A program made the translations under genes and the position numbers. Positions 19,591-49,703 of a stretch of DNA of 64,000 nucleotides are shown here, one piece after another. Where the stretch lies: positions 49,724,001-49,788,000 of the forward strand of contig NC_047015.1 in the NCBI RefSeq assembly GCF_902652985.1, read 5' to 3'. Position 1 is the stretch's first letter. Each line of letters starts with the position of its first letter. Under the pieces are notes generated by a model. The model saw nothing but the letters and a program-made list of their open reading frames with translations, was not told the origin of the DNA and did no database searches. The stretch comes from Pecten maximus (Eukaryota).

Positions 19591-21982
19591 TTATCCGACG
19601 ACTGTACTTGGAGTATTCTTCGCTAATGATGGGAGGTATTGGTTCCAGAACTGGACCCTGTCAAGTGTCACGTGATATTGTGGTGATATATTGCTGTCAA
19701 ACCGTTGGTAGAGCCCAGCTACCTGGTCGTATCTTGGCCAATGAGGAAGACCAGGACCATTTGGTGAACTGTAAACAAAAACAACAGATACAAGATTATT
19801 GTTTCATAAAATTATGATTTCTATAGGAAAAGGAAAACTGGATTTCAAATTTGTGTCAGTATGATTTATATTGCATGTGTTGTGATATGATAGACAGAAA
19901 TATCATAGGGAAATATTCATATCGTCTCAGTCTTTTTATGTGGTACGAATATTATTGATTAGATATCAAAACAATGTACAGTGATCGGTAGCATATTTTA
20001 CATGAAAGGAATTTATTACATAAGAAAAACTGAGACAGTAAAAACAAACAGAACACAACGTCATACATCATTAAATCATACGACGTAAAAATTGCTAGCT
20101 GTTTTGATATCAAATGCTGTAAACGTATATATTTTAGCGGGGAAATTGTTTTAGTGATTTTTCGCTCTGAAAATATTACACTTGATTACGATTCTAATCG
20201 GAACGTCTATATAACATTTTGCATATATAGTGGATGCATCCATTCATAAATAAGCCAATGTCAGATTTTTTTTAATGCTTAAATTCCTTTGTGGTCGATG
20301 GGGAGTGGTAATTGGATATTCTACAGAAACTGGTTATTACAGTTTTCCTACATAGCGAAAGTTCCATGGGATAATTTCGAAACAGTAACTATCATGCACT
20401 TTGAAACTTGTATTGAATTTGTTCAGAAAAGAAACATTACAAAGCAATGCATAGCTTACCCAGTCTTAGCGAAATTTGCCCAGTATGTCATCATGATCAA
20501 AGACAGCACTGGGTCATCTGCTTTGGAACCAGCAAACGAGAACAAATAGGAAAGTTCAGCGGCATGGCTTGCCCCAGTGAACCAAGAAGGGCGTTCGTTC
20601 GTACTCTTTGGTTCCTTGGTGAACATATACTGAAATGTATTCCTGCCCATGGTCAATCCAGGAGATGAGTGGCAGTCGAGAGTGCTGACCGTAGGGGCTA
20701 CCATAATGCCATCTGTGTACAGGTTGATGACACTTCTGCTTTGCTCAATGTCATTAATTTTGCTGTATTTTTGACAGATGGCGTCAGCAGCGGCCATGTT
20801 TCCCTCGAAGAGGTCTTTCGCATACTCCGGAGAAAGAACATCACATAAAAATCGAGTTGGTATACCAAGTGAAACATTAAAATTATATTGACGTTCTAAA
20901 TCATTCATATTGATGTCCAGCAGTATTGAACCTTCAGCGTCTGTATTGCCAAACATAGCATCCAAGGTTCGGAAAAAACAGGAGCCCTCTGAAGAGATAT
21001 TTGCCATCACATCTACGGGAAAAGCTTTAATAAGATCACCATCAACTACAGGTGCATCTCTCATTGCTATTTGATTGTCTCTATACTTTCCTTCATTTAA
21101 ATCCATTTGGGCTTGTATAATTTCTGCAGCGGATTTTCCTCTCAAACACTGAACAAGGACGGATGAGTCGAAATTTGCATCATGTTCATTTATGCAATGA
21201 AGGAAAATACCATATCCTCTAGACACCTTCTTAGCCTCTAAACTCATTGATGAAGGAGAATTAGCAGGTCCACTTTCACCGATAACGCGTTGGAATAGTC
21301 CATGGTTTTGTGGATTAAGAGCATGCAGAGCAACACTCATGGAGCCAGCTGATTCACCGAAAAGTGTAATTGAGTTCGGATCCCCACCAAATGCAGCGAT
21401 ATTTTGCTTTACCCATTGAATTGCAAGCCGCTGATCCCACAGACCGTAATTTCCCAACGAAGCATCGTCCATTGTACTCAGAAATCCGAGAAGTCCTAAA
21501 CGATAATTCACCGTGACAACAATAACATCTCCTACATTAGTGAGAGGTGACGCATCGTAAATGGTGCCTTGGCCAAATATATATCCCCCTCCATGTATCC
21601 AGATCATTACACTTTTTTTGTTTGTTAGGGAAGCATTGTATGGTGTGTACACATTTAATTGAAGACAGTCTTCCGACCTTTGCCTATTTTCGAGTATGTT
21701 TGAAATATATTTTGGATCTTGCATACATGACGGTCCGAACGATGTTGCATCCAGGACGTTTGTCCAACTACCAAATGGAACTGGTTTTCTAAGCCTCAAG
21801 TTTCCGACAGGTGGTTTTGCATAAGGAATATTTCGATACTGATATACTGAGTGATTCCTGTTCTGAATGGCAATGCCTCTGACGGGTCCAGATGGAGTAC
21901 GCAGCGTCTTGTAAGTTACACCATTTGCTACACTTACAAAGACTGCCACTAACGGTAGCCAATTGGCCTTGTACACCATCAT
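19591..21982 (-). CDS. Carboxylesterase type B, paralogue A (intact, secreted); coding exons 21982-20460 and 19768-19591
   Basis: Signal peptide MMVYKANWLPLVAVFVSVANG; SEDCLQLN, WIHGGG, FGESAG (Ser), NTDAEG (Glu), GASHAAEL (His). Phase-2 intron after FAKTG. Terminal exon SPNGPGLPHWPRY...DRVQFWN...TPSTVVG*. Confidence 0.93.
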
Positions 21983-22586
21983 ATTTTCTGAATAATCGGA
22001 AACGAAAAGTACACTTATAATATCTTTCATTCATTATTCAATATTTATCTCCGCATATATCTTTAATTCGAATTGGTACCTGTATCATTCCCTTTCGCTC
22101 TTTGTGCTCCCGGAAAGGGTCATGACAAAATCGAAAGCTCACTTTCCACATTCTTGTGGAAAAACAAATAAACTAGTTGCTTACTTTGTTCTTCAAACAA
22201 ATCTTGAGGTTGACATATAGAAAAATTGTCGGATTGTCGATCCTATATAGCCGTTAAAAGAAACACATCAGCTTAAAGATATTTGATGTTTTTTTCTTAC
22301 ACCAACCGAATTGCTAGTCGCTAGTCTTTGATTTTGTCATGGCATTCCAGAGGAGCAGAAAGTGAGAGTCAACGTTACCCCCGGAGTGGAAAAGCATGTT
22401 AACAGTCCCATAAAATGTTATACATCATCTGGGAACGGGGTGACGCTATGAGAAGGAAATCTCAATCGGAAAATGTTACAGCGCATTGTAACATGGAATA
22501 TTAGAACAAATGTAAAACTTTTTTAGGTTCATAATCAAAACATTTTATCAAACATTGTTAACTCAAGATATTACTTAAGGCCTTAC

Positions 22587-22670
22587 CTTTGTTGGTAATT
22601 CCGGTCTTATTCAGTCTCAAGGGACAACTGGCAGATATCGAGTTGGTAGTAAAGGTCAATATATAGATCA
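22587..22670 (-). promoter_or_regulatory. Putative core promoter and non-coding exon 1 of esterase A
   Basis: Minus strand: ctatatat TATA-like (~22660), ccagtt Inr-like ~30 bp downstream, AG|GTAAGG donor at 22587/22586. The block is conserved upstream of B (30782-30865). GATA motifs lie nearby. Confidence 0.55.
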
Positions 22671-22789
22671 GTCGCGATAACATTTGACCCATCGTTATCT
22701 TAGCTTGCTGGTTAATTTAGATTCATGAGAATGTCCCTGTGGTTACAAATATTGTAGGTCAGGAGAGAAAACATCAGAAACTACTCGTT

Positions 22790-24790
22790 CTAGCTTCCCG
22801 TAATGTTAAGAAGAGACACTCCAAACAGTCACTTTTGGAGGCCATGCTGAAGACCACTGATATGTTATGCCTACGTCAGCACTGGCTCTTTGAATTCCAA
22901 TAAGACAAGCTGAACTCCTCATCACTCTGCACACAGTAAGTCTATGGACTCCGATCCCATCAACACATGTTCCTAGAGGCTATGGTGGAGTTGCCGTAAT
23001 CTATAGCATTGACATTCATACCAAGATCACAGAACATCCGGATGGGGGAACAGATTGGTCTTGCCTTCTCGTGGAAATTCAACAATCCATGAATTTCTTG
23101 ATTGAACTTCAAATGTGTTGGTTTCAATGGTTCATTCTTACGACAAGAAAATAATGACAGAGACAGCTTACTGAATTTGTAAACCGAAGTTAAATCATCA
23201 CAGAATCACATTTTGACATCCTGTTTATTAACCAGAAATGCCGAAAGTGACTATATGTTCTGCAACCGGAAAGAATATCCACAAACGGTGAAGATCACAT
23301 TCCCTTTTCAAAGATATCATTAGGGAAAGTAAAATCATCAAAAACACTGCAATCCAGCAAACCAAAATGGGCAAGCTTTGACAAGGATATCTATCCGAGA
23401 TAAATCATGGAATCACAATTACAACGCAACCGAAAAAAAACACATACGGAAGTTAAATTCAGGCAGCTGTCAAACTTAGCAAACTTAGAGAGAATTATCA
23501 ATAATAGAACGGTCAGAGTTGTGAGACTATACACAATGTGGCAAGTCTAGGAATATACTCAATAGTACTGTGTTCTAGGTTGGAAACCACAAAGGTGAAG
23601 TGCTTCTATCTTTGACCCCACTGAGTTCCGTCTTTACATCGGGAATATTCTTCTCTTAGCTCTGCATTACTCGTAACGAAAGCCATACCAATGATATCAT
23701 CCCCGTTTTTAACGACATTGGATACAAAGTAGGCCTTTGACGTTATGGAACACCAGGTACTCTACAGACAACTGTACTCGGACAGTATCCAGGAGGGGGG
23801 GCTGGTTTATTGCCCAAGCTATCAATGTAAGTGATCAGTGTCGGATAGCCTTCCCATACGGCATGAGTCAGACAGTCCTCAATGCATTACAAGAGGTACA
23901 ATACGCCACTCCTACACTCCTAATGGGCTTTGAACAATCTTGATACCACACGTAACATGTGCCGCGCTACTGGCAAAATCAAAGAAGGATATGCAGACCT
24001 TATTATACTAGGTAAATACCTATAGAAGTAGGGGTGAGGGCAAGATACAACATAAACCCACTCAAGAGCAAGGTGATCCAATTCACCACCACCACCAATA
24101 TCCTCTTAAGTTAGAAGACCAGCCACTGGAAGTTATGGAGGGAAATGATCATTTAGGAGTTAATAGAAACATAAAAAGGACTTTGATATCGAAAAAAGGA
24201 ACAGGCAGACAGAAAGAGAGCTTACCTGTTAATAGGCGCTAGATTCCACGGCGAGCTATTAGAGGCATTGCAACGAGAGTCGCTACGCCAGGTGGAACAT
24301 ACTACGTATAGATTTCCGTCAGTTATAACCCTAGAACTTCTTTGGTTATCGCCAGTCGAGACATTAATCCACAAGAACATCCTGAACCTGTTTCGTAGTA
24401 TTATCTCCAGAGACGGTAGTATAGAATCTCAAGTGGCCCATCAACAACTAGCAGTGATGCACTTCAAGTCCGGCAGCTTCTTCTCTAAGGTACGAAGACA
24501 ACACGAAATGTATGGATTCCCAGACGTTTACCAACTACTCTTGAACACCACTTAAAAACTAAAGGGAAGGAAAGTGTCAATCTGGCCATCAACAGAAGTA
24601 TCACGCAGACATAGAGCGATGAGACGGAAGTGAAACCCCCACTGAAGGAAATTTACTTAAAGAACAAACACGAGGGAAAGTGTAGCATATCAACAGTGAA
24701 ATCGGTCCTAACCTGTTAGACGCAAAACGTGCAGAAATAAAAACAGACTGCTCACAGATACATACAAACTACAGGGAAACAGGCGCTAAG
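22790..24790 (+). mobile_element. Highly decayed non-LTR retrotransposon (CR1/L2-group LINE)
   Basis: Fragmentary translations include endonuclease-like HWLFEFQ, PRGYGGVA and HPDGG. RT-region IPHVTCA-ALLAKSKKDMQTLL has the DD deleted. C-terminal pieces LIHKNILNLF..QLAV..SGSFF and RLLTDTYKLQGNR are present. Confidence 0.7.
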
Positions 24791-26412
24791 TGAATGTGTA
24801 AGGCCTGGATGAGTAGTACTTAAGTTCTTATTATAGTTTCGTTAAGCTAAGTAAAATGTTTATAAAAAAATAGTATGTTTGTTTATTTATTTGAGTCCAT
24901 GGACCCATCCATTAGTGATTGTGTTAGAGTGATGGAGTGTTGAAATTCATATAGCATATACGCAAAACCTGTGGTTCCTAGAAAAGATCAAAAGATTGCA
25001 ATATGAGGACATGCTTCAGAAAGTGAGTTAGTATAAAAGTACTATCGGGTATATCAGGAGTGTCATGGTACATGTTATAAATGATAAATATGTTAATTAA
25101 TAAATATACGTGAGTTGAGATTCCCGTGCATGCGTACGTATCCATTATAGTATATGCAATTGTCAGTATAAAGAATATGAACGTGCTACATGAAATATCT
25201 AAAAGTAAAATATCTACATTCCGTTTGGCAAGTAATTCATTATATTTTTGACTGTGAAATGTAGAACATTATCAAACTGATAAATATATATGGTTTCCCG
25301 GAACTGCGTTCTTGAAGTATCGTAGCATATTGCCCATTGACAACGAGAGCGTATGAAGCTGTAGACCAACTCTAAATAATCCATATCTCGCGTGAGTTTG
25401 TTGTCTCAATTTAACGGATTTATGTACCGTTTCCATGCAAAGTCACATCAGTCACTTAGGCATCGGCGCAGTAATACCAGATGGCCTACATTTGATAAGC
25501 ATTACAGATCTTTATCCAATTACAATGTTTACATAAAGACTGGATAAAATATCGTGTTTTAGGAATTAATAAACGCGAACTGTAGTTTATAAGTGTCGTT
25601 TGTTATTTTTAACGTATTTTAAATGTGGAACTATATCTTGTAGCGTATTAATGTTTTGAAATGCGCACTTATCCCAATCAGCTGACTCGACCGGTTGTCA
25701 TTTTGACGAATTGGTGTATCTACTTTAAGTAAGCAGGTAAAGAAAAAACATGATAATAGCATGTTAAGGCCTCATTCATATCAAATATATTTCACCGCTA
25801 TTAAGCTGTACACCATTGAATATCCTCTATATGTTTGCATAAAAAATCTAAAGCAAAAACAAAAAAACAGGTACACTGTGAAAATGAGGGTACCTTCAAC
25901 TTAAGAGTCAAGGACAATGTGCTTAACGGTCATGAATTAAACATAACATAAACAAAATTTACAGTTCAGTTTAGAGCTCATGATGACGTCCTTTAAGTGA
26001 AAAAACGGTCTTTATGTATTGATGTATGGACTTGTGTTTATGATGTTTGGATATCTATGAATGATGTCTAGCAATATTCTTTACTCGATGGAATACATTA
26101 TGACTGACATTCGTTCCAGTAGCTTGTCAGGTACTGCCCAATTCTGTACATTACGTTCTTCAATTCGATAGTATTATATGCCAAATAAAAAAGTCCGGAA
26201 TGCCAGGAAAGAATTGAATGTTTAATACTTTTTTTCTAAACACTGAAGGGAAATAAAACCTGGATGTTTAAATTAAATTGTACATTATTTCATCATCTTA
26301 AAATGTTTTTTTCAACAGAAGTCTATGATAATCACGGTATATATAACGACGATGTAATAATCTGGTTGATGTCAACATAACAAATATAATCAGGATGGCT
26401 GTTAGAATGTTT

Positions 26413-28803
26413 TTATCCGACGACTGTACTTGGAGTATTCTTCGCTAATGATGGGAGGTATTGGTTCCAGAACTGGACCCTGTCAAGTGTCACGTGATAT
26501 TGTGGCGATATATTGCTGTCAAATCGTTGGTAGAGCCCAGCTACCTGGTCGTATCTTGGCCAATGAGGAAGACCAGGACCATTTGGTGAACTGTAAACAA
26601 AAACAACAGATACAAGATTATTGTTTCATAAAATTATGATTTCTATAGGAAAAGGAAAACTGGATTTCAAATTTGTGTCAGTATGATTTATATTGCATGT
26701 GTTGTGATATGATAGACAGAAATATCATAGGGAAATATTCATATCGTCTCAGTCTTTTTATGTGGTACGAATATTATTGATTAGATATCAAAACAATGTA
26801 CAGTGATCGGTAGCATATTTTACATGAAAGGAATTTATTACATAAGAAAAACTGAGACAGTAAAAACAAACAGAACACAACGTCATACATCATTAAATCA
26901 TACGACGTAAAAATTGCTAGCTGTTTTGATATCAAATGCTGTAAACGTACATCTTTTAGCGGGGAAATTGTTTTAGTGATTTTTCGCTCTGAAAATATTA
27001 CACTTGATTACGATTCTAATCGGAACGTCTATATAACATTTTGCATATATAGTGGATGCATCCATTCATAAATAAGCCAATGTCAGAATTTTTTGTAATG
27101 CTTAAGTTCCTTTGTGGTCGATGGGGAGTGGTAATTGTGTATTCTACAGAAACTGGTTATTACAGTTTTCCTACATAGCGAAAGTTCCATGGGATATTTC
27201 GAAACAGTAACTATCATGCACTTTGAAATTGTATTGAATTTGTTCAGAAAAGAAACATTACAAAACAGTTCTGAGCTTACCCGGTCTTAGCGAAATTTGC
27301 CCAATATGTCATCATGATCAAAGACAGCAATGGGTCATCTGCTTGGGAACCAGCAAACGTGAACAAATAGGAAAGTTCAGCGGCATGGCTTGCCCCAGTG
27401 AACCAAGAAGGGCGTACGTTCGTACCCTGTGGTTCCTTAGTGAACATATACTGAAATGTATTCCTGCCCATGGTCAATCCAGGAGATGAGTGGCAGTCGA
27501 GAGTGCTGACCGTAGGGGCTACCATAATGCCATCTGTGTACATGTCGATGACATTTCTGCTTTGCTCAATGCCATCGACTTGACTGTATTTTTGACAGAT
27601 GGCGTCAGCGACAGCCTTGTTCCCATTGTAGACGTCTTTCGCATATTCTTGAGAAAGAACATCACATAGAATTCGAGTTGGTATACCAAGTGAAACATTA
27701 AAATGATATTGACGTTCTAAATCGTTTATGTTGCTGTCCAGCAGAAGTGACCCTTCAGCGTCTGTATTGCCAAATATAGCATCCAAGGATCGGAAGAAAC
27801 TGGAGCCCGCTGATGAGATATTGGATATTACATTTTCGGGAAAAGCTTTAATAAGATCGCCATCAACTACAGGTGCGTCTCTCAGTGCTATCCTATTGTC
27901 CGTATACTTTTCTTCGTCTAAATCCATTTGAGCTCTTAGAATTTCCGCAGCGGATTTTCCTCTCAAACACTGAACGAGTAAAGATGAGTCGACATTTGCA
28001 TCATGTTCATTTATGCAGTGGAGGAAAATACCATATCCTCTAGACACCTTCTTAGCCTCTAAACTCATTGCTAAAGGAGAATTAGCAGGTCCACTTTCAC
28101 CGATAACGCGTTGGAACAAGCCTTGGTTTTGTGGATTAAGAGCATGCAGTGCAACACTCATGGAGCCAGCTGATTCACCGAAAAGTGTAATTGAGTTCGG
28201 ATCCCCACCAAATGCAGCGATGTTTTGCTTTACCCATTGAATTGCAAGACGCTGATCCCACAGACCGTAATTTCCCAACGAAGCATCGTCCATTGTACTC
28301 AGAAATCCGAGAAGTCCTAAACGATAATTCACCGTGACAACAATAACATCTCCTACATTAGCGAGGGATGATGCGTCGTAAATGGTGCCTTGGCCCAGAA
28401 TATATCCCCCTCCATGTATCCAAATCATCACACTTTTCCTGTTCGTAGGAGAAGCATTGTATGGTGTGTACACATTTAATTGTAGACAATCTTCAGACAT
28501 TTGCCTATTTTCGAGTATGTTTGAAACATATTTTGGATCTTGCATACATGACGGTCCGAACGATGTTGCATCCAGGACATTTGTCCAACTACCAAATGGA
28601 ACTGGTTTTCTAAGCCTCAAGTCTCCGACAGGTGGTTTAGCATAAGGAATATTTCGATACTGATATACTAATCGGTCTCTGTTCTGAATGGCAATGCCTC
28701 TGACGGGTCCAGATGGAGTACGTACTGTCTTGTAAGTTACGCAATTTGCTACACTTACAAGGACCGCCACTAACGGTAGCCATATTGCCTTGTACACCAT
28801 CAT
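26413..28803 (-). CDS. Carboxylesterase type B, paralogue B (intact, secreted); coding exons 28803-27281 and 26590-26413
   Basis: 508-aa exon ORF with signal peptide, FGESAG, NTDAEG and GASHAAEL; close paralogue of A; C-terminus TPSTVVG*. Confidence 0.93.
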
Positions 28804-30781
28804 ATTTTCTGAATAATCTGAAACAAAAAAAATGTATTCATTTTATCCACCACTCATTCACAGGTTACCTTTCTCGGTTACGATTAAGCTACCCTTGCTA
28901 TAAAATTCACTTTCGCTCTCTGTACAACCTGAATTTGTCATGGCAAAATTTAGGTCTGACTAACCGCCTTCTTGTGGATAAAACTAACAGACTAGATCGA
29001 TACTTTGATATACATTAAACAAGTCTCGAGTTTGCCATATCGAAAGCTTAGCGATCCGTTATGGTGTTTTCCTGACACGTATGTCTTCGATTTGTCATAT
29101 TCTACGGGAACAGAGAGCTAGTATGAATGTTGGAGTTAAAAGTGATTTATATATGAGAATAATTATCAGTTTTAAAAATTTACGAATAAATTTGCAAAAA
29201 AAAAACCAGCTCATGTGATATACAAAATTAATGACTGGACGTGTAGTTTGTCAAATTGTTTATATTTCACAGAATATACTATAACTTTCTTCTTTAGAGT
29301 TACTTTGTGGGAAGATTTAGTAACAATTATTAATCACACAAATGATCAAACCAAAAAACAGAATAATGCTGCTATGCTCACAATCGTTTAACCTTATTTG
29401 ATTTTATGTATACATGGACACTTTTTTTACCTTGAAATGCGAATGGCGGCTATGAAAAATACAACACAAATATGGCTTAAAGGAATCAATTTCAATCATT
29501 AACTCATATTTCTTTCTTTTAAGACACCTGATTATAGAAAGGACGATGTTTAAGGCCTTTTTCGGGAATAGGTATCTTTTAATTCAAACTCAGCAACTGA
29601 ACATTTTTACATAAAAACAATCTTCTTACCATGTTCAGAACCATTGATGGCGTCTAATAAGAACATTTGTTATGCCAGAAACGTCTCCCTTTTTGCCATA
29701 TTAGTGTAATATTATCTATCGCCGCTATTTGCATTTCATGCTCAAAATAGAACCATTGTTTAGGCACATGTAAAGTCAAACCAATGATTGTATTGCATAT
29801 CATAGACACTTGTGACTATTTTGTGCATTAAAACGTGATACAACTGAACTAATTATGTTCTCCTGAAACATGCATTGTGTTAAAAATTGATCAAAATTAC
29901 TTCTATTAATTTTTTCAATAGTAGAGATGGAATTGCTTGTAAATGGATGTCCCTTTAAAGTCGCACATGCTGTTACATAAATTACTGACAATAATAATCA
30001 TTTCATACAATGGTATTTTTATTGAGCATGCTTTATAAACAATTAGAGATGAACCTGATATCGGAGATTATGGTTTTTAATATCAGCTATGAATAGAAAT
30101 GAAACCGACAGTGTATTACATTTTGTTCATCACACGTGACGAAACGGATTCAACCAATATTTACGAAAATTACAAAATTGCTCAAATTCCGAGCATCAGT
30201 TCCGGTTTCACACCCCTATCGTTCCCAGAGTGGAGAATGGACCAGCACCACGATAGAATACAGTGTTATATCCGTTATTCTTTACGGACTCTATCTATTA
30301 CTTTATTCCGATATAAACATTAATTACTTGTATGCCTATTGTACTATACACAGTTTAGCTAGCTGCTTAATGTGTTCATACGGAGAGAAATATAGTTTAC
30401 ACGATTGCGCGTCATCAAATCTATACATGTATACCAAGTTATAGATATTAAAGAAATGCAATATTCAACTTTGCAATATGTTTACTTAATTTTAAGATAT
30501 TTTGTTATCATGTGGATTGCAAATTGTAAATGTTGCATAATGTTTGAGCTGCAAACCAAAGTATAAGTGCGATTTCAAAAAAGAAAAGTTTAGAAGGCAA
30601 ATCAAGAAATATTCACAGTACTCAGAAGAAAGGTTTTAATTCAGAAATGGTGTAGTACATTTTATAATGGAATCTTAGAACTAACGCCTTCTACAAATGC
30701 GGAACTTCTTAAATATCCATAACCTATACATTATGACAATATTGTTATATTGGCATATTGACCGACTCTTTGAGGCCTTAC

Positions 30782-30865
30782 CTTTGATGTTCGTTCCGGT
30801 CTTATCCAGTCTCAGGGAACAACTGGCAGATATCGGGTTGGTAGGTAGGGTCAATTTATGGATAA
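30782..30865 (-). promoter_or_regulatory. Putative core promoter and non-coding exon 1 of esterase B
   Basis: Homologous to 22587-22670: donor AG|GTAAGG, ccagtt Inr-like, cataaat TATA variant, adjacent GATA sites. Confidence 0.55.
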
Positions 30866-31535
30866 AACTCGCGATAAACATGGTCTAACATTTGCGCCAC
30901 CAGCCTAGTTTCACATATGTAGTATACTTATCTTAATCTCCTGTGATACCAGGGCAGTGTCAACAAATAAATGGACATGTGTATCAAGTTTGTCAAAATA
31001 AGGAAAACTGGACATTCAGCATAAACCATGTGTATTAATTCAAATACGATTAGCAATATCTTCTGTGAAGAATCTATACCTGGTATTACTGAAAAACTTA
31101 TCTCAGATTTTAAACAAATACGAAATCTTCGTTAACATCCTTAAGTAATTTAGAAATACTTAGATCCGTCACTGAGATGAATTTGTGAGGCTTAAAGGTG
31201 AAGCAAATCGTTGATAGAGAACAAATTATACACGTTTCATAGATAAGTCGACATACTTATAACTTGTTATGTTGAATTCCAATTCAACCCAAATATAGAA
31301 ATACGTTCTGTGACATCTAGGTAGTTTTTGATTGAATGTCAACCATCAAAGATTTACCAAAAAATAAAAAACAAAAACAAAAACAAACAAACAAAAAAAA
31401 ACAAAAAAAACAACACTGTATGTGCATCATCTCGGAATTATTAAGAGCTTGAATAAATCGTGCCAGTAAAACAAGGAAATTCTTATTACATAATAATAAA
31501 GTAATCCGAACGAGGAAGAATGTTTTGGTGAATGC

Positions 31536-35268: not shown

Positions 35269-37277
35269 ATGAGGATGTTGATTCTAATATGGCTTCTATC
35301 GATGTCAGACATGACGCCGGATGTGAATAGTCAAATGAACAAGAAGACTGTTGACACACCGTTAGGACCTATAACGTGATTGACGACGCCCATTCAAACT
35401 GGAAGTATATCTCAATTCCGCAAAATCCCTTACGGGAAAACACCTGTTGAAGACCGAAGATTCAACAAACCGGAACCGTTCGGAAAATGGACTGGAACAT
35501 ATGATGCAACGAATTTTGGCCCAAACTGTGTGCAGGATATGAGTATATCATTCAGATCTGGGGATAATTTTCTTCCCAACTATGGAGTGTCCGAAGACTG
35601 CTTACATCTTAATATTTTCGTTCCAACATCAGCGTCGCCCACAAGCTTGAAGTCGGTAATGGTGTGGTTGTACGGGGGTGCTTTTGTGTCCGGACAAAGT
35701 GGTATATACGATGGTTCTGCTTTGGCCTTCAATGGTGACGTAATTGTGGTTACTTTGAATTACCGCATTGGTCTCCTGGGATTCTACAGCACAGGAGACG
35801 AAGCTGCACATGGTAATTATGGATTGTGGGACCAGCTTCTGGCATTGCATTGGATCAAAGACAATATTAGGGCGTTCGGAGGTAATCCGAATTCAATAAC
35901 AGTATTTGGCCAATCTGCAGGATCCTTGAGTGCTTCAAATTATGCTCTGAATCCAAGAAAATAAAGGAATGTTTCACAGGGTGATTCTTGAGAGCGGGAC
36001 AGCAAATCAGGTAGCTGCATTCAATCTTGAAATAAATGCATATGCCAGAGAGTACAGCATTCTATTAAATTGTACAGATAAGGGCATTAATCATCCTAAC
36101 ACTACAGAAATGGTGGAATGCATGCGTACTAGATCGGTGAAGGAAATTATAAAAAGTCAGCAAGACCATGTCGTCAAAACATACGCTAATTTCGTCCTCG
36201 ACTTTAGTATATTCCCTGTTGTGGATGGAGAACTAATTCCAATACACCCAAAAATTATTTTAAAGAATACCTCATCTCCAGCATACAAATTCCTACAGTC
36301 TCTTGATGTTATTGGAGGAACAACCAGCGGTGAAGGTTATTTGTTGCTAGATTACCATGGCAAAAGCATGGAAAGACTTTGGGGACTTAACTTAACAGAA
36401 GGCCTATCAACTGCCGATTTCTGTTCCAGGATAGCACCAGAAATGGCCAATGACTTCTACCACAGCCATCCGCATGTGGCCAATGACATTTGTCAGATGT
36501 ACAAGTCGGGTGTAAGTGATCAGGACCAAGCCCTGAATGTTACAAAGGCGTATGGTGATATGATAATGCAGGCACCAACTGTTTCGTTCCTAAAACGCCA
36601 TGCTAAAAATAACAATCAGACCAAAACCTTTCAGTATCTTGTATCCCATGGAAATTGTATCACCAAAGTTCGCCGGGATCCACCCTGGTTCAAGGGTGTT
36701 CCTCATGCTGGTGAACTGCCCTACTTGTTTCGGCCAAAGTTCATTGGAATACTCATCGATACTTGTCCCGAAGACATCTTATTGTCGGCTAAATTTATCA
36801 AGTACTGGAGCAATTTTGCCAAGACTGGGTATGTCATATCGCAATTACTTCAATTGAATGTTGTTTTTAAATCGCAGAGTTATATTTTCGTCATTTCTTT
36901 GTTTGAGGTTCTTATATTTTGTTGGACATAAAAGGTACTTCATCCATCCAATTAATCTAATTTATTATAATTCCGTACATGATTATTTTATCATCTATTT
37001 ATTTTTCAACAGTAATCCGAATGGTCCTGGTTTACAACAATGGCCATTGTTTGATCTGAGAAGGTTTGGGTACCTGAACTTCGATAATAATATCACTGAC
37101 CAAAAAAAACTCTATTGGGACCGGGTTCAATTTTGGAACTACCAAATCGATAGACAACAGAACGCAACGTATGATAATGATTCACAACTTAACAGGAGCA
37201 ACCCCCAATTCCATCAATATGGCATCATCATCTGCTTTGTTACAGCACTGCTCGTGTTCCTTCTGTTTGTGAGATGA
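35269..37277 (+). pseudogene. Carboxylesterase paralogue C (GPI-type tail), disrupted; exons 35269-36828 and 37013-37277
   Basis: ATG 35269 with signal-like MRMLILIWLLSMS. TGA at 35377-35379 replaces a conserved Gly (GPIT*L). Extra A near 35960 in NPRNKG. Triad GQSAG/TTSGEG/GVPHAGEL is intact. Tail ...NRSNPQFHQYGIIICFVTALLVFLLFVR*. Confidence 0.85.
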
Positions 37278-38500: not shown

Positions 38501-39729
38501 CTGTAAAAGTGGATATTTTCGCGCGTTGAAATTTTCGCTTAGTCAGCCTCCAAACTGTTCGCGGTGTGGATATTTTCGCGCTGTCAATTATGATGAAAAT
38601 ATATTTTCGCGCTGCGATGTCATTGGCCATGTACATGAAGTATGATTATTATCGGCAAACTCCATTGAAAGCTCGCGACGATCGGTCCAGTTAATATACC
38701 ATACTTTGATCAACAGACACGTTTAGGTTAATTGGTTGTAAGTGTGATCATTGCATTACGTCTTAGTGACAGAAAAAAAACATCAATATAAATAAAATAT
38801 TTAAGCGTTGTTTCAGTTTTTTACGTTGAAAATACACCACATACGAGACACCTGATTGCAACTGTAGGCCCCGATAATGTATAAATAACTTCGTTATCAG
38901 TACTCGTACGGTATGGTAAATTAAGAAATCGTCCGTGTATTGTTGAATGCATTGTTAACTAAGTATTTTTATTATTTAATTGCAACTGAAAATCTCTTAA
39001 TTATTTCCAATCAAACTATTACCTGTAAACCTGCTCCCTCAAGCTAGGTAGACAGGCCACGCGAGGTGACACTCGCGGTCATGTTGAAAGGATCGGACGT
39101 CCGGTCATGCCGAGTGACGTGTTATACTTTCATGTCTAGTCAAAACAACACCAGGTGTCCCAATTAGCGATAGTTGATTTTGCAGGTATCAAATAAGTTC
39201 GGTAGTAATTAAATACGACAATTAAAAAGCAGACATATTGATGTTCTGACCTAATTTTACCAACATACTGTATATAGACCTATTTCTACAGTAGCCCTTT
39301 CGTATTTTCAATATATTAAACGGATCATTCGTTACAGTTAACTATCGGTGGTTTCTGATTCAAATAAAACATATAACCACGCGGAGACTCAACATTAACT
39401 TTTTTAATACAAGCAAGTTTATCTATTTTGTCACAAATGAAACGTGTGCTGTTTTGGGGCCTATAGCTTCACAATGATCAATCAACATTAAACTAGATGC
39501 AATATTATCATTTTACTAATTATTCAAATTAGTATAGCAATGTCTCAGACAAATGACCGACCATGACAACGTTACACAGCACGGACGACATGGTTTACAG
39601 CAGGAACTTTCGTCTTGGATGTGGAAATATTCGCGTGCCAATATTCTCACGTGTTATTATATTCGCGGAAATTTAATGATCGCGAAATAAGCGAAAATTT
39701 CCACGCCGCGAACATTTCCACTTTTACAG
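38501..39729. mobile_element. Tc1/mariner-type (pogo/Tigger-like) non-autonomous element with TA TSD
   Basis: TIR ctgtaaaagtgga...tccacttttacag flanked by TA (38499-38500, 39730-39731). Absent from the paralogous site near 46045. Confidence 0.85.
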
Positions 39730-40838
39730 TATATTGTATACTGGGTATTTTAAAATATATATTGAGGAGGTTAAATATAAATTCACAACCCGCTGTATAT
39801 ATAATCGGTGTTTTTACATTTTCTGACTACATTTAATGACCGCGAATACAACAAGATTAAATTCGAGCAAATATTACCAACTACATGTACTCAGTTTTGA
39901 CTATATGAGTTGATGTTGCAGAGATATTTCTTTTCTAAAATGGAACAAGATGTGTAAAATTTCAATGAATCCATGTCACCGAAAGTCGATATATCATAAT
40001 AGAAACTCATTAACAACACGATTATCAAACAGGATAAACAACACAATAAATAGAAATGTATTTCTGTGCGACAGAGCCATTTCGAATGATTTATTTAATA
40101 GATTATTTTATATAAAACAGTTGTGTTATGGAAATGAAACATATATGTACCTACAAACAAAGGATTTCATTTACATGTGATTATAGATTGATCATAAACT
40201 TTATCCGTTGGGAATACACTTCAAAGCTACTCCTGATATCACTGATTACCATGTATATATATATATATCATTTATAGAATAAATCAAGCATTTGAATTAT
40301 ATTTCCGCCAAAACTCACTCCCATTTTTTTCTGTTCTTTTATTGATGTAAAATCTGTCTGCCGCTACCCATCGGCCCTAAATAACTCATACACATACAGG
40401 TAACACGCGGTATTGATTTACACGTGCAAATCACATATCATTACGCCGGCTATTGGCACTGCATAACATACTGAAAATAACTCCATCAAAATTCCTACCC
40501 GTCATACGGTTGAAATTAAATGACTAGCTATTTGTTAACGAACCCGTTAATCTAACTCGTAATCTAACAATAAAGAACAAGTTATCGACAAAATTCTAAT
40601 TTTGGCAATGTCTCGTTTGAAGCTATTTGCGTTTTAAAGTCATTACAAGATGTGAGATAAACTAAAATACTCATAATGTGAAATTGTGCGCTTGTTTGTG
40701 TGAAGATTATGAAAACGTCATATTAACCAATGTTAAAACTATGTTTTGCTAAATAAACGCCTTCATTTAAAACAATTATTTTATTTGTTTTAGTGTTTAT
40801 GAAAATATGATTTTATATCTATTCCAGAAACGACGACA

Positions 40839-42357
40839 ATGGAACGTAGCGTTCTGATGTATCTGTTCCTTTCGGCTTTTGTGTGCGATGGTTTATGTTC
40901 CAACTATAAAACAGTGCGAACTCCGTCAGGACCCGTCAAAGGAATTGGTATACCTTATAATGGTGATATGGTGTTTCAATACCGTAATATCCCATATGCT
41001 GAATCTCCGGTAGGTGATTTGAGACTACAGAAGCCGGTACCACACGGAACATGGACAGACGTTTTGGATGCGACAACATTCGGTCCTTCCTGTATTCAAG
41101 ATGTTGCCCGAATAAAAAGTTTAATACCGAAACTGCCGAATTCTAATTTTTCTGAAGACTGTTTGCAACTCAATGTGTATACACCAAACATTGTTTCAAC
41201 ATCACAAAACAGAAAGAGCGTCATGATATGGGTTCATGGAGGAGCTTTCATGTTAGGACATGCCACGTATTATGATGCATCTAATATTGTATCCAAGGGA
41301 GACGTCATACAAATTCTTCCGGTCTTTAGACATTATATATGGCACATGTAGCAGTGAAGGTTTGGTTGCAACTATTATCGCTGATGGTCTTCAGAAGAAA
41401 TACGGGTTCAATGCAACGCTTGAAATACCTACCATTGTTTTACGTGACGAGTTTGCACCAACAATTTCTCATTATTACTATAATAGCAATGAGCATGTGT
41501 CCCGCGCTATCTATGACAAATACACTAGCAAGGATGCACTTACACAGAGCAAAAATATGATAGATGTGTTCACCGACTATATATTTCTTGCCTCGACAGT
41601 AAAAGCACTGAACTCACATTCATCAACCGGTCTTGCCACAGGAGGAAACACTTTCCAGTTCATATTTTCAGCACATGGTGTTTTGAAAGGGTATGTTGTT
41701 CCCGTCTATTTAGAAGGAGCGTGGCATGGGGCCGAACTTCCCTTCTTGTTTGGTCTAGATGGTCAAGGAGTTGTTGTGAACAAAACTGCAGATATCAACG
41801 CTGTAACAAACACAATGATTACATATTGGACAAACTTCGCCAAACACGGGTAAGTGGTTTCGGGAAAATCCTAAATATGAAATTAAACCGTGTCAATTTA
41901 TCTCAACTGAAATATCCTACCATACTCACAGTCAAATGTACAAATAGGCTTCAATATTGGAGGTTTCGGGTCTTTCTGTGAGCTGGGACAGCTTTTATAA
42001 TTTTGCACCACTTCCGGTAACACTATGCGTTGAAACTGTCAGTTAAATAAAAAAAATACACTAATAATAATTTCAAAATACCGTTAAGATTGTCACTAAT
42101 GAATTATTAAGGTATGTATGTTGCAAAAGTGTTATGAAAATATATACATATGTGTGCATTGTGCATAATTATTCAGAAATCCGAATAGCCACGGACTTCC
42201 TGATTGGCCTGTGTATAATCCGGTGACAACCGAGTATCTGAACATCAACACAATAATGTCCACAGGAAGTCACGTGGCCGAGGACAGAATGAGGCTATGG
42301 AACTGGTACATCCCGTCACTGCTAAAGCTTCAAACGAGCGCAATTTTAGGAAAGTAA
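40839..42357 (+). pseudogene. Carboxylesterase paralogue D: near-identical copy of F with a 536-bp internal deletion that removes the catalytic Ser
   Basis: Junction gacgtcATAcaaattc at 41307-41309 joins F positions 48113 and 48649 and shifts the frame. Terminal exon 42177-42357 ends QTSAILGK*. Confidence 0.92.
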
Positions 42358-43467
42358 CAAAGCTTTTGATTGATGCCAGGTCGATGATTTCAAATCTCAT
42401 TACGCACTGTAGACTTGAATGACACGTAGTTATCAATTGACGTACAATACAGTGACTACTGATGTTGTTATGCAAACGAGGACTTTGAATATTATTTCTA
42501 GTTTAGGAATCGAATAAACGTTGTTTATATACTTCAATGTTTGTTACATAAACATGACGGGAAGCTTTCTATTAACAAATTAAATGCATCAAATTTTTTA
42601 TAAATAAAAATAATGTTGAATGGCGTTTTCGATGTTCTGTTTACTTTTGGGTGGACTTCGCTTGGTTCGGGTTAGAAGGGGATAACGTTCGTAGTACGGC
42701 TAATTTGATGGGGTCGTAGTATAAGTAGAATGGAATACGAAACGAACAGTATAACCATCATAGTATAAGCTATGACAAAATGACAAAACAGGATGGTTAC
42801 TAAAGAAAAATGTCCTTGTATATCATACATGATATTTTGTGCAGCAAAATATTTATTATCATAGTGATTTTTTTTATTTATTATTTGTTTACAGTTATAC
42901 ATTTTTTGATATTATCATCATTTTGAATCTTAATCTTAATTTCCGAAATGACTTGAATAGTACTATGGTTTATTGTGCATTATCAACATTTTCCCTTAAA
43001 ATTGAGTCATTCTAAAACAATAAACATTGATTGCTAATTTTGATTAAAATACCTTAAAATAGGAATTGAAGAAATTCGAGGAAGAAGTTGTTTGGTCATA
43101 AAACATGGATAATGTCTCAGTATCAGATACCGGCGTGCTGTGTCATTATTTAGATAGTAATACACACATAATCTAGCAGCTGTGTTTTCCGCTACCTGTA
43201 CGGTAACACGGAATGCTACGATAATCGAATTTAAAACGACAAAAAGAGAAAAGGCAAACTTAATATTTTATTGATCTTCCTAACAGCATAATAGTTAGCA
43301 ACTGTAAAAATATGTCATGTACACCTGTTTGTCCAGGTTTATTTGTTGGTATAGAGTGTTAATAGTTCATAATGTCAAAAATTATGTACGACGAACAAGT
43401 TATCAACATATCTTAAGTGTGCATGCTGCCATACACGTAACAAATAAATATAATGGATATCAGAGGT

Positions 43468-44718
43468 ATCTTGAAATAAAAAAAAACATATGTCAGAGAG
43501 TACGGTATTCTATTAAATTGTACAGATAAAAGCATTAATCATCCCAGAACTACAGAAATGGTGGAATGCATGCGTACTAGATCGGTGAAGGAAAGTCAAG
43601 ATCATGTCGTCAAAAAATAAGCTGATTTCGTTCTCGACTTTAGTATATTTCCTGTAGTGGATAGAGAACTAATTCCATTACATCCAAACAAATTATCAAT
43701 AATCCTCATCTCCATCATAAAAAATTCCTACCATCTCTTGATGTTATTGGAGGAACAACCAGCGGAGAAGGTTCTTTGTTGCTAGATTACCATGGCCAAA
43801 ACATGGAAAGAGTTTGGGGACTTAACTTAACAGAAGGCCTATCAACTGCCGATTTCTGTTCCAAGATAGCACCAGAAATGGCCAAGGACTTCTACCACAG
43901 CCATCCGCATGTGGCCAATGACATTTGTCGGATGTACAAGTCGGGTGTAAGTGATCAGGACCAAGCCCTGAATGTTACAAAGGCGTATGGTGATATGATA
44001 ATGCAGGCACCAACTGTTTCGTTCCTAAAACGACATGCTAAAAATAACAATCAGACCAGGACCTTTCAGTATCTTGTATCCCATAGAAATTGTATCATCA
44101 AATTCCGCCGGGATCCACCCTGGTTTAAGGGTGTTCCTCATACTGGTGAACTGTCCTACTTGTTTCGCCCAAAGTACATTGGAATACTCATCGACACTTG
44201 TCCCGAAGACATCTTATTGTCGGCTAAATTCATCAAGTACTGGAGCAATTTTGCCAAGACTGGGTATGTCATATCGCAATTACATGTACTTCTATTGAAT
44301 TTTGTTTTTAAATCGCAGAGTTATCTTTTCTTCATTTCTTTGTTTGAGGTTCTTATATTTTGTTGGACATAAAATGTACTTCATCCATCCAATTAATCTA
44401 ATTTATTATAATTCCGTACATGATTATTTTATCATCTATTTATTTTTCAACAGTAATCCGAATGGTCCTGGTTTACCACAATGGCCATTGTTTGATCTGA
44501 GAAGGTTTGGGTACCTGAACTGCGATAATAATATCACTGACCATGAAAAACTCTATTGGGACCGGGTTCAATTTTGGAACTACCACGTCGATAGACAACA
44601 GAACGCAACGTATGATAAGGATTCACAACTTAACAGGAGCAACCCCCAATTCCATCAATATGGCATCATCATCTGCTTTGTTACAGCACTGCTCGTGTTC
44701 CTTCTGTTTGTGAGATGA
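43468..44718 (+). pseudogene. Carboxylesterase paralogue E: 5'-truncated duplicate of C
   Basis: Begins mid-exon relative to C (36024) and lacks the signal peptide and GQSAG. Stop near 43618 plus indels. Retains the intron and hydrophobic terminal exon. Confidence 0.92.
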
Positions 44719-47221
44719 ACTGTGAACAGTTACTGTACACTCTATAAGATAATTCCAATATCAATCATAAAATAAGGAAAACGGATCTGAATGATTTACA
44801 AATTGTATATCTAGAACTGTGCTCTTTAGAAATGTTATCTATTACATTTTACAGATTAAACTTTTCTGTCTTCATACCTTTTTTGTCATGACAATAAATA
44901 AACATACCATTGTTTTTTGGATACAGTGATCTGCAAAATGCTATAATGGCGGAATAAAACATATACGTATAGCATTCTGGAAAATGTTAACATATACAAA
45001 CGGTTTCATTTTATTAAAAAAACCAACAAGATAATTTGCAATGTAAATTGATTGATGATCAGGGTTTTTGAAAACTTTACTTTGAAAACAACTTTAGAAG
45101 CAATAACTATCAATTATATAACAATAAATTCATAATAAATCCATAAATATGAATTTGGGAGTAAACCTTTTATAGTGTTTATTGATTTCTAAGCAGTGTA
45201 CAAGAATAATGTATCCGAAAATGTGGAAATCTAAACGGGAAGTCCGGAAATCCAAATGGCTCTAAAGAAATGTAAACCTACCGATATTTTAACTTTTTAT
45301 TCATCTCGATTATTTGTTTTTCCAAGTTTTCAATTTTTATTATAATCAGATAGATCATATTACTAAGTAAGTAAATGGACACACATCGAATTATCTGTGG
45401 ATTCATTTAATCTTTAACGACATTGAAAGACAGAAATCGAGGATTCAGCTATTTTGATATCTATCTTTTATCATCTTATCTTCTATTAATACTCCTTTTA
45501 TGCAACTGTTCCGTATTCTCTAAGTTATCATGTTGGAAAATATATCCTAAGTAGGAGACACAAAGCCTTTTACGACGACCTTCCAATCGGCAACATTTAA
45601 GATTAAAATCGACACTTATATTAACAGTATCGGTACGTAGAGACAGGTCCTGGCGACCGTAAAATTTCCTCATTGACGACTGAAGATAAAGAAACCTAAC
45701 TGCATGTGGACGTCCCCAACATCGGTATTTAACTTACTAGGTCATAGTTACATGTTAAAATCTGGAACGTTAAAGTTTAATATTAAATGATATTTCTGCA
45801 GTAAGTGATCACATATCCAGTGAATATACATGGCGGTAAAAGAAGAGATAAAGGAATAGGTATTGTGTTTTTGAAGAAAATAGAAACTCGAGGCTATTTG
45901 GATCATTCTTAGGCGCAATTTAGGTATGTCTGATTTTGTATATTGTTTGGGTATATTTTTGTTTATCTATAAAGATCTTTCGAATACGTTATAAATAAAT
46001 AGCTATTGTCATTATTATACCAGAGCGTGGAATTAAAATTATTGTATATTGTATACTGAGTGTTTTAAAATATATATTGAGGAGGTTGCTAATGGTAGTT
46101 CAGACATTTTATATTCCATTATGTTTTATAAACTTTTAATTTATATCATACTCAATTCATTAAATATGTAATGTATCATATGTTTAATTGATCTGAAGTC
46201 ATAAGAAATCAAAAATGTATTTCATATATCTAGCGAATGGTTTCGATGAGGATTAAGACACATTTTAAGGTCAAAGAATAAACTGGTTGCTGGTATGAAA
46301 ATTTGCGATACAGCTTTGTATAAATACTCTACATTAAACAAGCGAACAAATTCCAACATTTGTGTGTTTATATAATTTAAATTGATAACTCATTGTATAA
46401 ATAATCGCTGGTATACATTTTCGAGCTACATTTAACGACTGCGAATACAACAAAATTAAATTCCAGCAAATATTACTATACTATTAAGTTTTGCATATTT
46501 ATACGATATGAGTTGTTGTATGTAGGAATATTAATTTTTTTTTTTCTAAAATTGAACAAGATGTTCATCGATGAATCCATTTCACCGAAAGTCAAAATAT
46601 CATAATAGAAAATCGCTAACAACACGCTCATCAAACAGGATAAACAACACAATATATAGAAATGCATTTCAGTGCGATAGAGTCATTGCTAATGATTTAT
46701 TTAATAGATCATTTTTATATAAAACAATTGTGTTATGGACATGAAACATACATGCACCTACAAACAAAGGATTTCATTAAATTATAGATTTATCATAAAC
46801 TTTATCCGTTGGGAATACACTTCAATGCTACTCCCTATATCATTGATTACCAATATATGGTTATATAACATTTATAGAATGAATTTAATCCTTTGAATTA
46901 TATTTCGGCCAAACCTCCTTCCCATTTTTACTGTTAATTTAAAATTCAATTTCCGTCTGCTGCCACTACCCGTGTCGCCTGAATAGCACGTAAACGTTAC
47001 ACACGGTAGGGATTTGCACGTGCAGATCACATATCGTTACGCCACCTATTGACAATGCATAACATACTGAAAACAATTTCATCCTAAGTCCTACCCGTCA
47101 AACGGTTGAAATCAAATGACTAGCTATTTGTTAACGAACCCGTAATTCTAATCCACGTTATCGGCAAAAATTACAACGATACCTATGAAAAAGTACCAGT
47201 ATGATAAGGTGTTCCGAGCGG

Positions 47222-47389
47222 ACACGTGTCCCGCGCTATCTATGACAAATACACTAGCAAGGATGCACTTGCACAGAGCAAAAATATGATAGATTTGTTC
47301 ACCGACTATGTATTTCTTGCTTCGACAGTAAAAGCACATTCATTAACCAGTCTTGCCACAGGAGGAAACACTTTCCAGTTCATATTTTC
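47222..47389 (+). other. Inserted 168-bp copy of esterase D/F coding sequence upstream of the F coding exon
   Basis: Matches 48835-49011 with a 9-bp deletion; absent from the paralogous region upstream of D (~40580-40610). Confidence 0.88.
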
Positions 47390-47644
47390 CATGAAAATCT
47401 AGGTCTAATCTAGGCAAAGTCTCGTTTGAAGTTATTTGTGTTATAAAGTCATTACAAGATGTGAGATAAACTAAAATACTCATAATGTGAAATTGTGTGC
47501 TTGTTTGTGTTATAATTATGAAAACTTCATCTTTATCACTGTTAATACTAAGTTTGGCTAAATAAACGCCTTCATTTAAATCAATTTTTTTTTGTTTAGT
47601 GTTTATGAAAATATGATTTTATATCTATTCCAGAAACGACGACA

Positions 47645-49703
47645 ATGGAACGTAGCGTTCTGATGTATCTGTTCCTTTCGGCTTTTGTGTGCGATGGTTT
47701 ATGTTCCAACTATAGAACAGTGCGAACTCCGTCAGGACCCGTCAAAGGAATTGGTATACCTTATAATGGTGATATGGTGTTTCAATACCGTAATATCCCA
47801 TATGCTGAACCTCCAGTAGGTGATTTGAGACTACAGAAGCCGGTACCACACCGAACATGGACAGACGTTTTGGATGCGACAACATTCGGTCCTTCCTGTA
47901 TTCAAGATGTTGCCCGAATAAAAAGTTTAATACCGAAACTGCCGAATTCTAATTTTTCTGAAGACTGTTTGCAACTCAATGTGTATACACCAAACATTGT
48001 TTCAACATCACAAAACAGAAAGAGCGTCATGATATGGGTCCATGGAGGAGCCTTCATGTTAGGACAAGCCACGTATTATGATGCATCTAATCTTGTATCC
48101 AAGGGAGACGTCATAGTTGTCACAGTGAATTATCGTCTTGGAGCGCTTGGATTTTTCAGTACAGGTGACGATGCGGCAAGAGGGAACTTTGGTCTTTGGG
48201 ATCAAAGACTAGCATTCCAATGGGTGAAAGATAACATCGCATCCTTTGGTGGCGATCCTGACACGATGACCATATTTGGACAATCTGCTGGGGCCTTTAG
48301 TGTTGGTATCCACGCAACGATACCTCTGAACAGAGGATTATTTACACGGGTGATTTCTGAAAGTGGAGGACAAGGTTCAAAAATATCAGTCCGACAAGAT
48401 GCAGATCTCATCACATTCGAATACGGTCGAAAGATCAACTGTATTACAGGGGCAGATAATCACATTGATATGCCGACACTCGTTCAATGCCTTAGGAGGA
48501 AAACTACTGATGAAATAATGGATGCTCAAACAAATCTGAACTCTTCTTTGTATGGAGGTGATTATGGCATCGAATTCATGCCAGTTGTTGATGGAACTCT
48601 GATAAAAGCCTTGCCTGATGTTTTAATTTCAAATTCAACATCTGAAGAATACAAATTCTTCCGGTCTTTAGACATTATATATGGCACATGTAGCAGTGAA
48701 GGTTTGGTTGCAACTATTATCGCCTACGGCCTTCAGAAGAAATACGGATTCAATGCAACGCTTGAAATACCTACTATTGTTTTACGTGACGAGTTTGCAC
48801 CAACAATTTCTCGCTATTACTATAACAGCAATGAACACGTGTCCCGCGCTATCTATGACAAATACACTAGCAAGGATGCACTTACACAGAGCAAAAATAT
48901 GATAGATTTGTTCACCGACTATGTATTTCTTGCTTCGACAGTAAAAGCACTGAACTTACATTCATCAACCGGTCTTGCCACAGGAGGAAACACTTTCCAG
49001 TACATATTTTCAGCACATGGTGTTTTGAAAGGGTATGTTCCTCCTGTCTACTTGGAAGGAGCATGGCATGGGGCCGAACTTCCGTTCTTGTTTGGTCTAG
49101 ATGGTCAAGGAGTTGTTGGGAACAAAACTGCAGATATCAACGCTGTAGCAAACACAGTGATTACATATTGGACAAACTTCGCCAAACACGGGTAAGTGGT
49201 TACGGGAAAATCGTAAATATGAAATTAAACCGTGTCATTTTATTTCAACTGAGCTATCCTACCATACTCACAGTCAAATGTACAAATAGGCTTCAATTTT
49301 GGAGGTTTCGGGTCTTTCTTTGAGCTGGGACAGCTTTTATAATTTTGCACCACTTCCGGTAACACTATGCCTTGAAGCTGTCAGTTAAATAAAAAAAAAA
49401 ATACTAATAATAATAATTTCAAAATACCGTTAAGATTGTCACTAATGAATTATTAACGTATGTATGTTGCAAAAGTGTTATAAAAATATATACATATGTG
49501 TACATTGTGTATAATTATTCAGGAATCCGAATAGCCACGGACTTCCTGATTGGCCTGTGTATAATCCGGTGACAGCTGAGTATCTGAACATCAACACAAT
49601 AATGTCAACAGGAAGTCACGTGGCCGAGGACAGAATGAGGCTATGGAACTGGTACATCCCGTCACTGCTAAAGCTTCAAACGAGCGCTTTAATAGGAAAA
49701 TAA
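47645..49703 (+). CDS. Carboxylesterase type B, paralogue F (intact, secreted); coding exons 47645-49191 and 49523-49703
   Basis: Signal peptide MERSVLMYLFLSAFVCDGLC; SEDCLQLN, WVHGGA, FGQSAG, CSSEG, GAWHGAEL; C-terminus QTSALIGK*. Confidence 0.94.

Follow-up and report, generated by a model that had tools for sequence, protein, structure and literature searches.

A hydrophobic-hydrophobic-glycine ending on bivalve type-B carboxylesterases as a candidate amidation signal and address label

The 64,000-nucleotide stretch of the scallop Pecten maximus analysed here (contig NC_047015.1, positions 49,724,001 to 49,788,000; hereafter the window) contains eight type-B carboxylesterase gene copies (PF00135), which we named A to H (Table 1). 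Four of them, A, B, D and F, end in two hydrophobic residues followed by Gly or Gly-Lys, and it is this ending that concerns us (endings are written up to the stop codon throughout). Every copy has the same layout, with a long coding exon and a short last exon separated by a phase-2 intron, which follows a motif labelled, from its sequence, WxNFAKxG. The COesterase domain lies above the curated cut-off in A, B, F and H (423, 428, 419 and 431 bits, respectively), and both the catalytic GxSxG Ser and the His motif are found in these four copies; the Ser motif is missing in D. Genes A, B and F are intact and combine the Ser and His motifs with signal-peptide-like starts. Five of the eight copies (C, D, E, G and H; window positions 35269-58264) are broken or partial, and assembly errors may account for some of their single-base frameshifts. 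C-D is repeated in tandem as E-F, with 81-96% identity block by block. The last exons of A and B are identical, and those of D and F match at 95%. An additional F-like exon piece is located at 47223-47390, and an N gap (18968-19467) lies directly behind gene A. The nearest named homologues are from Pecten maximus, Ylistrum, Mizuhopecten and Argopecten, while the nearest solved structures are mammalian CES1/CES2, AChE and bile-salt lipase.

Table 1. Esterase gene copies and Gly-type C-terminal motifs in the window.
Feature	Position	Strand	Description
Gene A	19591..21982	-	Intact; exon 21982-20460 with a signal-peptide-like start and the Ser (GESAG) and His (HAAE) motifs; last exon 19768-19591 after a phase-2 intron, which was placed by GT/AG and likeness to B
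Gene A C-terminal motif STVVG	19591..19608	-	Stop at 19591-19593
Gene B	26413..28803	-	Intact carboxylesterase; exon 28803-27281, last exon 26590-26413; RNA joint 27281>26590
Gene B C-terminal motif STVVG	26413..26430	-	
Gene C	35269..37277	+	Broken paralogue with an in-frame stop at 35379 and, near 35955, a frameshift; tail long, hydrophobic and of GPI type; Gly motif absent
Gene D	40839..42357	+	Broken duplicate of F, frameshifted; ~536 nt of exon 1 gone near 41309, including the catalytic Ser motif; last exon 42177-42357
Gene D C-terminal motif SAILGK	42337..42357	+	
Gene E	43498..44718	+	5'-truncated duplicate of C; hydrophobic GPI-type tail
Gene F	47645..49703	+	Intact; splicing seen in RNA contigs; exon 47645-49191 with the Ser (GQSAG) and His (HGAE) motifs; last exon 49523-49703; poly(A) near 49979
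Gene F C-terminal motif SALIGK	49683..49703	+	
Gene G	51318..53651	+	Paralogue, frameshift near 52060; end HQEL (ER-retrieval type)
Gene H	55882..58264	+	Paralogue; exon 1 intact, last-exon frameshift near 58152; end KVPIF, without Gly motif

An earlier note on this DNA had reported the endings at stops 19591 and 26413 (STVVG, minus strand), 42357 (SAILGK) and 49703 (SALIGK, both plus strand). These positions hold, and each closes exon 2 of a two-exon carboxylesterase gene. RNA contigs, from coded runs that carry no tissue label, splice gene F at 49190>49522 in 4/4 runs, the motif codons show no other letter, and in one run the gene F RNA has a poly(A) loose end at 49979. The A/B-type joint 27281>26590 is spliced in 4/4 runs as well; since the A and B last exons are near-identical, these contigs need not derive from B alone. 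A splice-donor artefact, in which the GK ending of F would be read-through of a GT donor, was ruled out by the codons GGA AAG TAA / GGA AAA TAA and the RNA joints. The note had also placed the motif just beyond the last conserved helix. In an AlphaFold model of P0012, a protein of the A type (overall predicted local distance difference test (pLDDT) 93; 64-row alignment, monomer only), the last helix ends at residue 559, and residues 561-566 form a coil with a mean pLDDT of 52. Matches to solved structures end at about residue 560, short of the motif.

The argument from two divergent lineages, taken as independent evidence, does not stand as it was put. A/B and D/F are sister groups within one clade of 12 rows, all with the ending (Shimodaira-Hasegawa-like approximate likelihood ratio test 99), and being joined in a single well-supported clade they provide one or two independent cases, not four. 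Equally, the observation that D and F differ (IL versus LI) and still keep the pattern is weak evidence, D being frameshifted and having lost its catalytic Ser motif. The window by itself is thin evidence, and the real support comes from the remaining family members.

We pooled 256 homologous proteins, of which 124 retain the last exon; the other 132 (exon-1-only calls, fusions and fragments) were dropped. The 124 tails comprise 35 hydrophobic (glycosylphosphatidylinositol (GPI)-type) ends, two of which also finish in G or GR, together with 29 xxEL, 32 Gly(+basic) and 28 other ends. Among the 60 tails that are neither xxEL nor hydrophobic, 32 end in G(K/R)0-2 or a G-basic-extension, compared with about 5% expected. 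Although hydrophobic residues were not preselected, V/I/L/F occupies position -1 in 32/32 and position -2 in 31/32 of these ends (background 0.285 each). The Gly is terminal, either directly or after K/R removal, in 30/32, and equally in A, B, D and F. The motif is followed by a stop in 23 cases, by K in four and by R in four, with no other residue seen (K+R background 0.105), and 8/8 extensions start with K/R. Six of the 32 Gly-type homologues come from the window's own species; at 50% identity the 32 form 10 clusters, and 11/34 soluble-end clusters hold one. As a measure of chance, hydrophobic-hydrophobic-Gly(K/R)0-2 stands ahead of 69/15970 six-frame stops (0.43%), and composition gives an estimate of 0.77-0.92%. 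Judged by these frequencies, the ending is confirmed as real, selected and far beyond chance in the esterase family.

The distance from the conserved last Trp to the Gly varies between 16 and 35 residues, indicating that the motif tracks the terminus and not the fold. Positions -4 to -6 before the end vary freely, and no conserved peptide lies between cleavage sites as it would in a neuropeptide-type precursor. A last-exon profile gave just 16 matches against longer proteins. A feature search of the ESM Atlas, using the 20 C-terminal residues of P0012, returned unnamed clusters only, all below 0.9, and no lead.

The same picture emerges within the scallop genome. Its 40 esterase last exons include 14 that end in G(K/R)0-2, one IVGREM, nine xxEL, eight hydrophobic and eight other ends; these counts are lower bounds, contain several recent duplicates and place one RKGKL end under other. 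Two V/I/L/M/F residues precede the Gly in 11 of the 14, the rest being two AIGK and one ATGK. Three further STVVG last exons were seen, one just upstream of the window (L040) and two on the small contig C3730 (L032-L033), which may represent the other haplotype of the A-type copies. In the duplicate pair L025/L026 (G000:C18:16.86-16.88 Mb), one copy ends in IVGREM, and in its partner the last exon carries both a stop and a small deletion, which shifts the motif out of frame.

Tails of the HXEL/KDEL-like and GPI classes set the localisation of type-B carboxylesterases and cholinesterases. The xxEL tail of KDEL-type endoplasmic reticulum (ER) retrieval is absent from A, B, D and F. The same genes lack the terminal hydrophobic stretch of >=13 residues that marks a GPI signal, with a maximum hydropathy of 0.32 (A, B) and 1.13 (D, F) versus 3.27 in C and E. 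At the level of sequence, the Gly ending is shown to be mutually exclusive with xxEL and GPI-type tails. No CaaX box was found, as the window motifs contain no Cys; in the family only Mytilus CIFG/CVFG resemble CaaX, both on proteins with signal-peptide-like starts. By a simple hydropathy measure over 11 residues, the signal-peptide-like start reaches 2.45-2.69 in A, B and F, and at least 1.8 in 27/32 Gly-ended homologues.

Carriers of the ending were found in Pecten, Ylistrum, Mizuhopecten, Argopecten, Mytilus, Ostrea, Magallana, Saccostrea, Pinctada (PFGK), Potamilus and Sinanodonta. They span scallops, mussels, oysters and freshwater mussels (unionids). Few of the named rows lie outside the bivalves (Lottia, Batillaria, Babylonia, Gigantopelta, Lineus, fishes and a millipede); none of these has the ending, but they are too small a sample to bound its range. 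On a quick IQ-TREE of the domain without tails (71 rows: 51/69 complete homologues and 20 genome exons; near-copies, fusions and fragments excluded), the tail label needs seven changes, of which at least six are forced by starred branches.

Beyond the esterases, a trypsin-like protease (L156/L192, G000:C17:25664514) ends in YGATSVLG, with AATAAA ~35 nt later. In four scallop genera this protease ends in SVLG, TVLG, AVLG or AVIG; the orthologues are >90% identical and hence weak evidence alone. More distant orthologues carry extensions after the Gly, SALFG-RR-ETEEFRMYR in Dreissena (53% identity) and an SSG-KR-extension in the Tegillarca cluster. Across its orthologues, the protease retains a dibasic site, with or without Gly ahead, and then a short peptide. 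Four chitinase-type CBM14 last exons of the scallop genome end in YVG, YTGRK, GSGK and TSGK, an interchange of G, GK and GRK without the full hydrophobic pair. The chitinase-type cluster (L099-L111, L193) occupies G000:C1:18.33-18.41 Mb, and two of its Gly-ended exons, 420 bp apart, may be alternative ends of one gene.

Family by family, the strict motif was found in 0/4 readable last exons of ependymin (9 loci), 0/30 CBM14 loci sampled from 108 matches (with the four Gly-type ends above), 0/25 ShK ends, 1/40 trypsin ends, 0/50 C-type lectin frames (62 loci of 148 matches; two CYG), 0/3 readable lipase ends and 0/18 copper monooxygenase ends, three of which end in G at possible donors. Loci for vWA (30) and beta-lactamase (17) were nearly all internal exons and were excluded from the counts. 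A genome-wide DNA pattern count of the motif was rejected by calculation, as the background would swamp the signal.

We consider the ending best explained by a trimmed, PAM-amidated esterase tip that would serve as an address label, and assign this reading a probability of roughly 0.55. G, GK, GRK and G-dibasic-extension all converge, through carboxypeptidase E-type trimming and, if needed, a convertase, on one peptidyl-Gly for peptidylglycine alpha-amidating monooxygenase (PAM) (PMC5577615, PMC6919629, PMC3652174). In the proposed sequence of events, the signal peptide would take the esterase into the secretory pathway. There, a carboxypeptidase E/D-type enzyme would strip K/R, with a convertase cutting first where a dibasic site follows the Gly, and PHM/PAL (PAM) would turn X-Gly into X-NH2, leaving a Val-Val-NH2 or Leu-Ile-NH2 tip. 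The G-RR (Dreissena) and G-KR (Tegillarca cluster) extensions fit a convertase site, whereas GRET, GREM and GRGTE are monobasic. Taken together, secretory entry, K/R trimming and amidation of these esterases are probable in the light of established chemistry.

The amidated hydrophobic tip, held on a free stalk, would then probably be recognised by a trafficking or docking partner and in this way act as an address label. A label is suggested in preference to protection because the helix-ended paralogues have no tail to protect, yet a 16-35-residue stalk is kept with only its tip fixed. It is further suggested because the tails of this family (xxEL, GPI-type) set location and the Gly ending excludes both. 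A sorting tag is compatible with this exclusion, and the ending would add a third kind of address label to the two that sister genes carry, the ER-retention and the membrane-anchor tail. That the amide acts as a label, and not as mere protection, we put at slightly less than even odds. The label reader could be PAM itself, carrying its cargo into regulated granules. PAM has been described as a non-catalytic carrier of soluble cargo (bioRxiv 10.1101/2020.03.08.982777), a role in which the amidation reading and the sorting reading would meet.

The genome offers a candidate for the enzyme. A PHM-like DEMCNFY stretch occurs in two exons 17 kb apart (L294-L295, G000:C9:3.60-3.62 Mb), whose best PDB matches are PAM at weak E values of 0.04 and 0.16; the two may belong to a PAM gene that has its monooxygenase domains in tandem. 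Molluscan PAM and carboxypeptidase E are cited in PMC5577615. The Cu2_monooxygen matches sampled first were rejected as PAM, being DBH/MOXD-like. Such DBH/MOXD-like copper monooxygenases are greatly expanded in this genome (39 and 41 exon matches; L195-L201, L277-L296), with clusters on C2, C9 and C18 and ends that are soluble or hydrophobic.

The amidation proposed by the earlier note gains from the interchange of G, GK, GRK and G-RR-extension ends, the free tail, the signal-peptide-like N-termini and the PAM-like exons. Several points weigh against it. Both the amide and the presence of PAM and carboxypeptidase E in the producing cells are predictions. The PAM-like exons score weakly, and another candidate, a third exon, has no match. 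Three esterase relatives end in IVGREM, IVGRET and IVGRGTE; convertases cut poorly at a single Arg that has no basic residue ahead of it, so these would not easily be amidated. The Pinctada protease orthologue ends in SQ-KR-GLHYV, a dibasic KR without a preceding Gly. Nor are two hydrophobic residues needed by amidation alone. PAM prefers hydrophobic residues before the Gly, a preference for which our literature search gave no source. The tree carries long-branch warnings, and on it repeated gain and one gain with losses are indistinguishable. The earlier note's impression of such ends as a common feature of secreted molluscan proteins found no support in the scallop genome: outside the esterases the strict motif occurs in 1/170 domain-end frames of seven families, which is about chance, though many of the frames are internal exons and the one case is backed by orthologues. 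Finally, the sequence signature would be no different if the ends were trimmed to a free Gly-carboxylate for recognition by a receptor.

This last point leads to the foremost alternative, which we regard as unlikely: the tag would be read unamidated, its basic residues trimmed or tolerated, and a receptor would bind hydrophobic-hydrophobic-Gly with its carboxylate free, for sorting or recapture. Sortilin ligands and plant vacuolar C-terminal sorting signals provide models for such a system. It accounts for the strict hydrophobic pair and the GRET, GREM and GRGTE ends, it suits a Gly ending that excludes xxEL and GPI-type tails, and 5/28 of the other ends finish in two hydrophobics without Gly (p 0.07). 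However, a Gly-carboxylate exposed in the secretory pathway is a default substrate of PAM (PMC3652174), and K/R-only and dibasic extensions are the standard layout of an amidation site.

Amidation might instead merely shield the enzyme end from gut or haemolymph carboxypeptidases, with the hydrophobic pair making a good PAM substrate and no reader involved. The sequence evidence for this is the same as for the address label, and amidation stabilises peptides (PMC3652174, PMC5577615), but the tail lies outside the fold and paralogues exist without it (VLPKA, VMPKD and PKFLL ends), so that trimming should cost little; we judge protection alone to be distinctly improbable.

Less probable still is shared ancestry or a structural contact without processing, in which an inherited ending packs on the enzyme or a partner subunit. 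The window's two lineages are indeed sisters, and contacts in an oligomer lie outside a structure model that covers the monomer only. Against this, the stalk is 16-35 residues long and free in sequence except at its tip, the tail is a low-confidence coil, an unrelated protease shares the ending, and nothing but K/R follows the Gly. Least probable of all is a tail cleaved at an upstream basic residue and freed as a short amidated signalling peptide: A, B, D, F and several relatives do have K or R 7-9 residues before their end, but it is absent in P0002, P0008 and P0011, and the stretch up to the motif is unconserved.

On the minus strand at G000:C14:36.07-36.12 Mb (L004-L009), about a dozen carboxylesterase domains stand in series, the tail of one domain continuing in frame into the body of its successor in at least seven exons; with its hydrophobic-tailed last exon, this is apparently one giant surface-anchored multi-esterase protein, and multi-domain relatives of 1500-3400 aa were also found. 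The window itself contains tandem arrays with units of 24, 21 and 63 bp (10570-12742, 14710-17180, 1-437 and 4563-5722), which give long repetitive open frames.

When comparing the address-label reading with known systems, the closest chemistry is the PAM amidation of neuropeptides and mussel myticalins (PMC5577615), with which the esterases share the Gly, Gly-Lys, Gly-Arg-Lys and Gly-dibasic-extension endings and a signal-peptide-like start. Here, in contrast, PAM would act on a whole 60-kDa enzyme, or on a protease of 30 kDa, and not on a short peptide; a pair of hydrophobic residues is required, and the amide is a prediction. In Chlamydomonas, large proteins ending in -GR/-GRRR have amidated C-termini (PMC6919629). 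The ectosome proteins Cre03.g204500 and Cre12.g487700 described there resemble the esterases in having an amidation signal at the extreme end of a large secreted protein, for which carboxypeptidase trimming suffices. Those are signalling proproteins, whereas we describe hydrolases whose ending alternates with ER-retention and GPI-type tails. With type-B carboxylesterases and cholinesterases (PF00135) the genes share the fold, the catalytic Ser and His motifs and the swappable tail, and differ in the third tail class. PAM-proANP cargo carriage (bioRxiv 10.1101/2020.03.08.982777) supplies a candidate reader; proANP is not amidated and is without such a tag, and binding of the esterase tip would be by analogy. 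A literature search with subscription journals for the most part and supplements outside its coverage found no description of a hydrophobic-hydrophobic-Gly ending on bivalve esterases. Amidation chemistry and large amidated proteins (Chlamydomonas) are already known, and the selected ending on bivalve esterases is, as far as this search goes, new.

More tentatively, folded enzymes that bivalves secrete, among them esterases and some of the proteases and chitinases, could share a hydrophobic C-terminal amide as a portable address label. PAM would make it and, with or without a dedicated amide-binding receptor, route its bearers to regulated granules or recapture them, as a third sorting system beside KDEL and GPI.

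Amidation is usually viewed as a peptide-hormone modification. If the amidation reading is true, an animal enzyme class with a selected amidation signal would widen the substrate range of PAM and would allow a direct test of whether an amide can label folded proteins for trafficking. From three or four residues at the terminus, a large bivalve family of detoxification and digestion enzymes would also fall into ER, surface and tagged-secreted classes.

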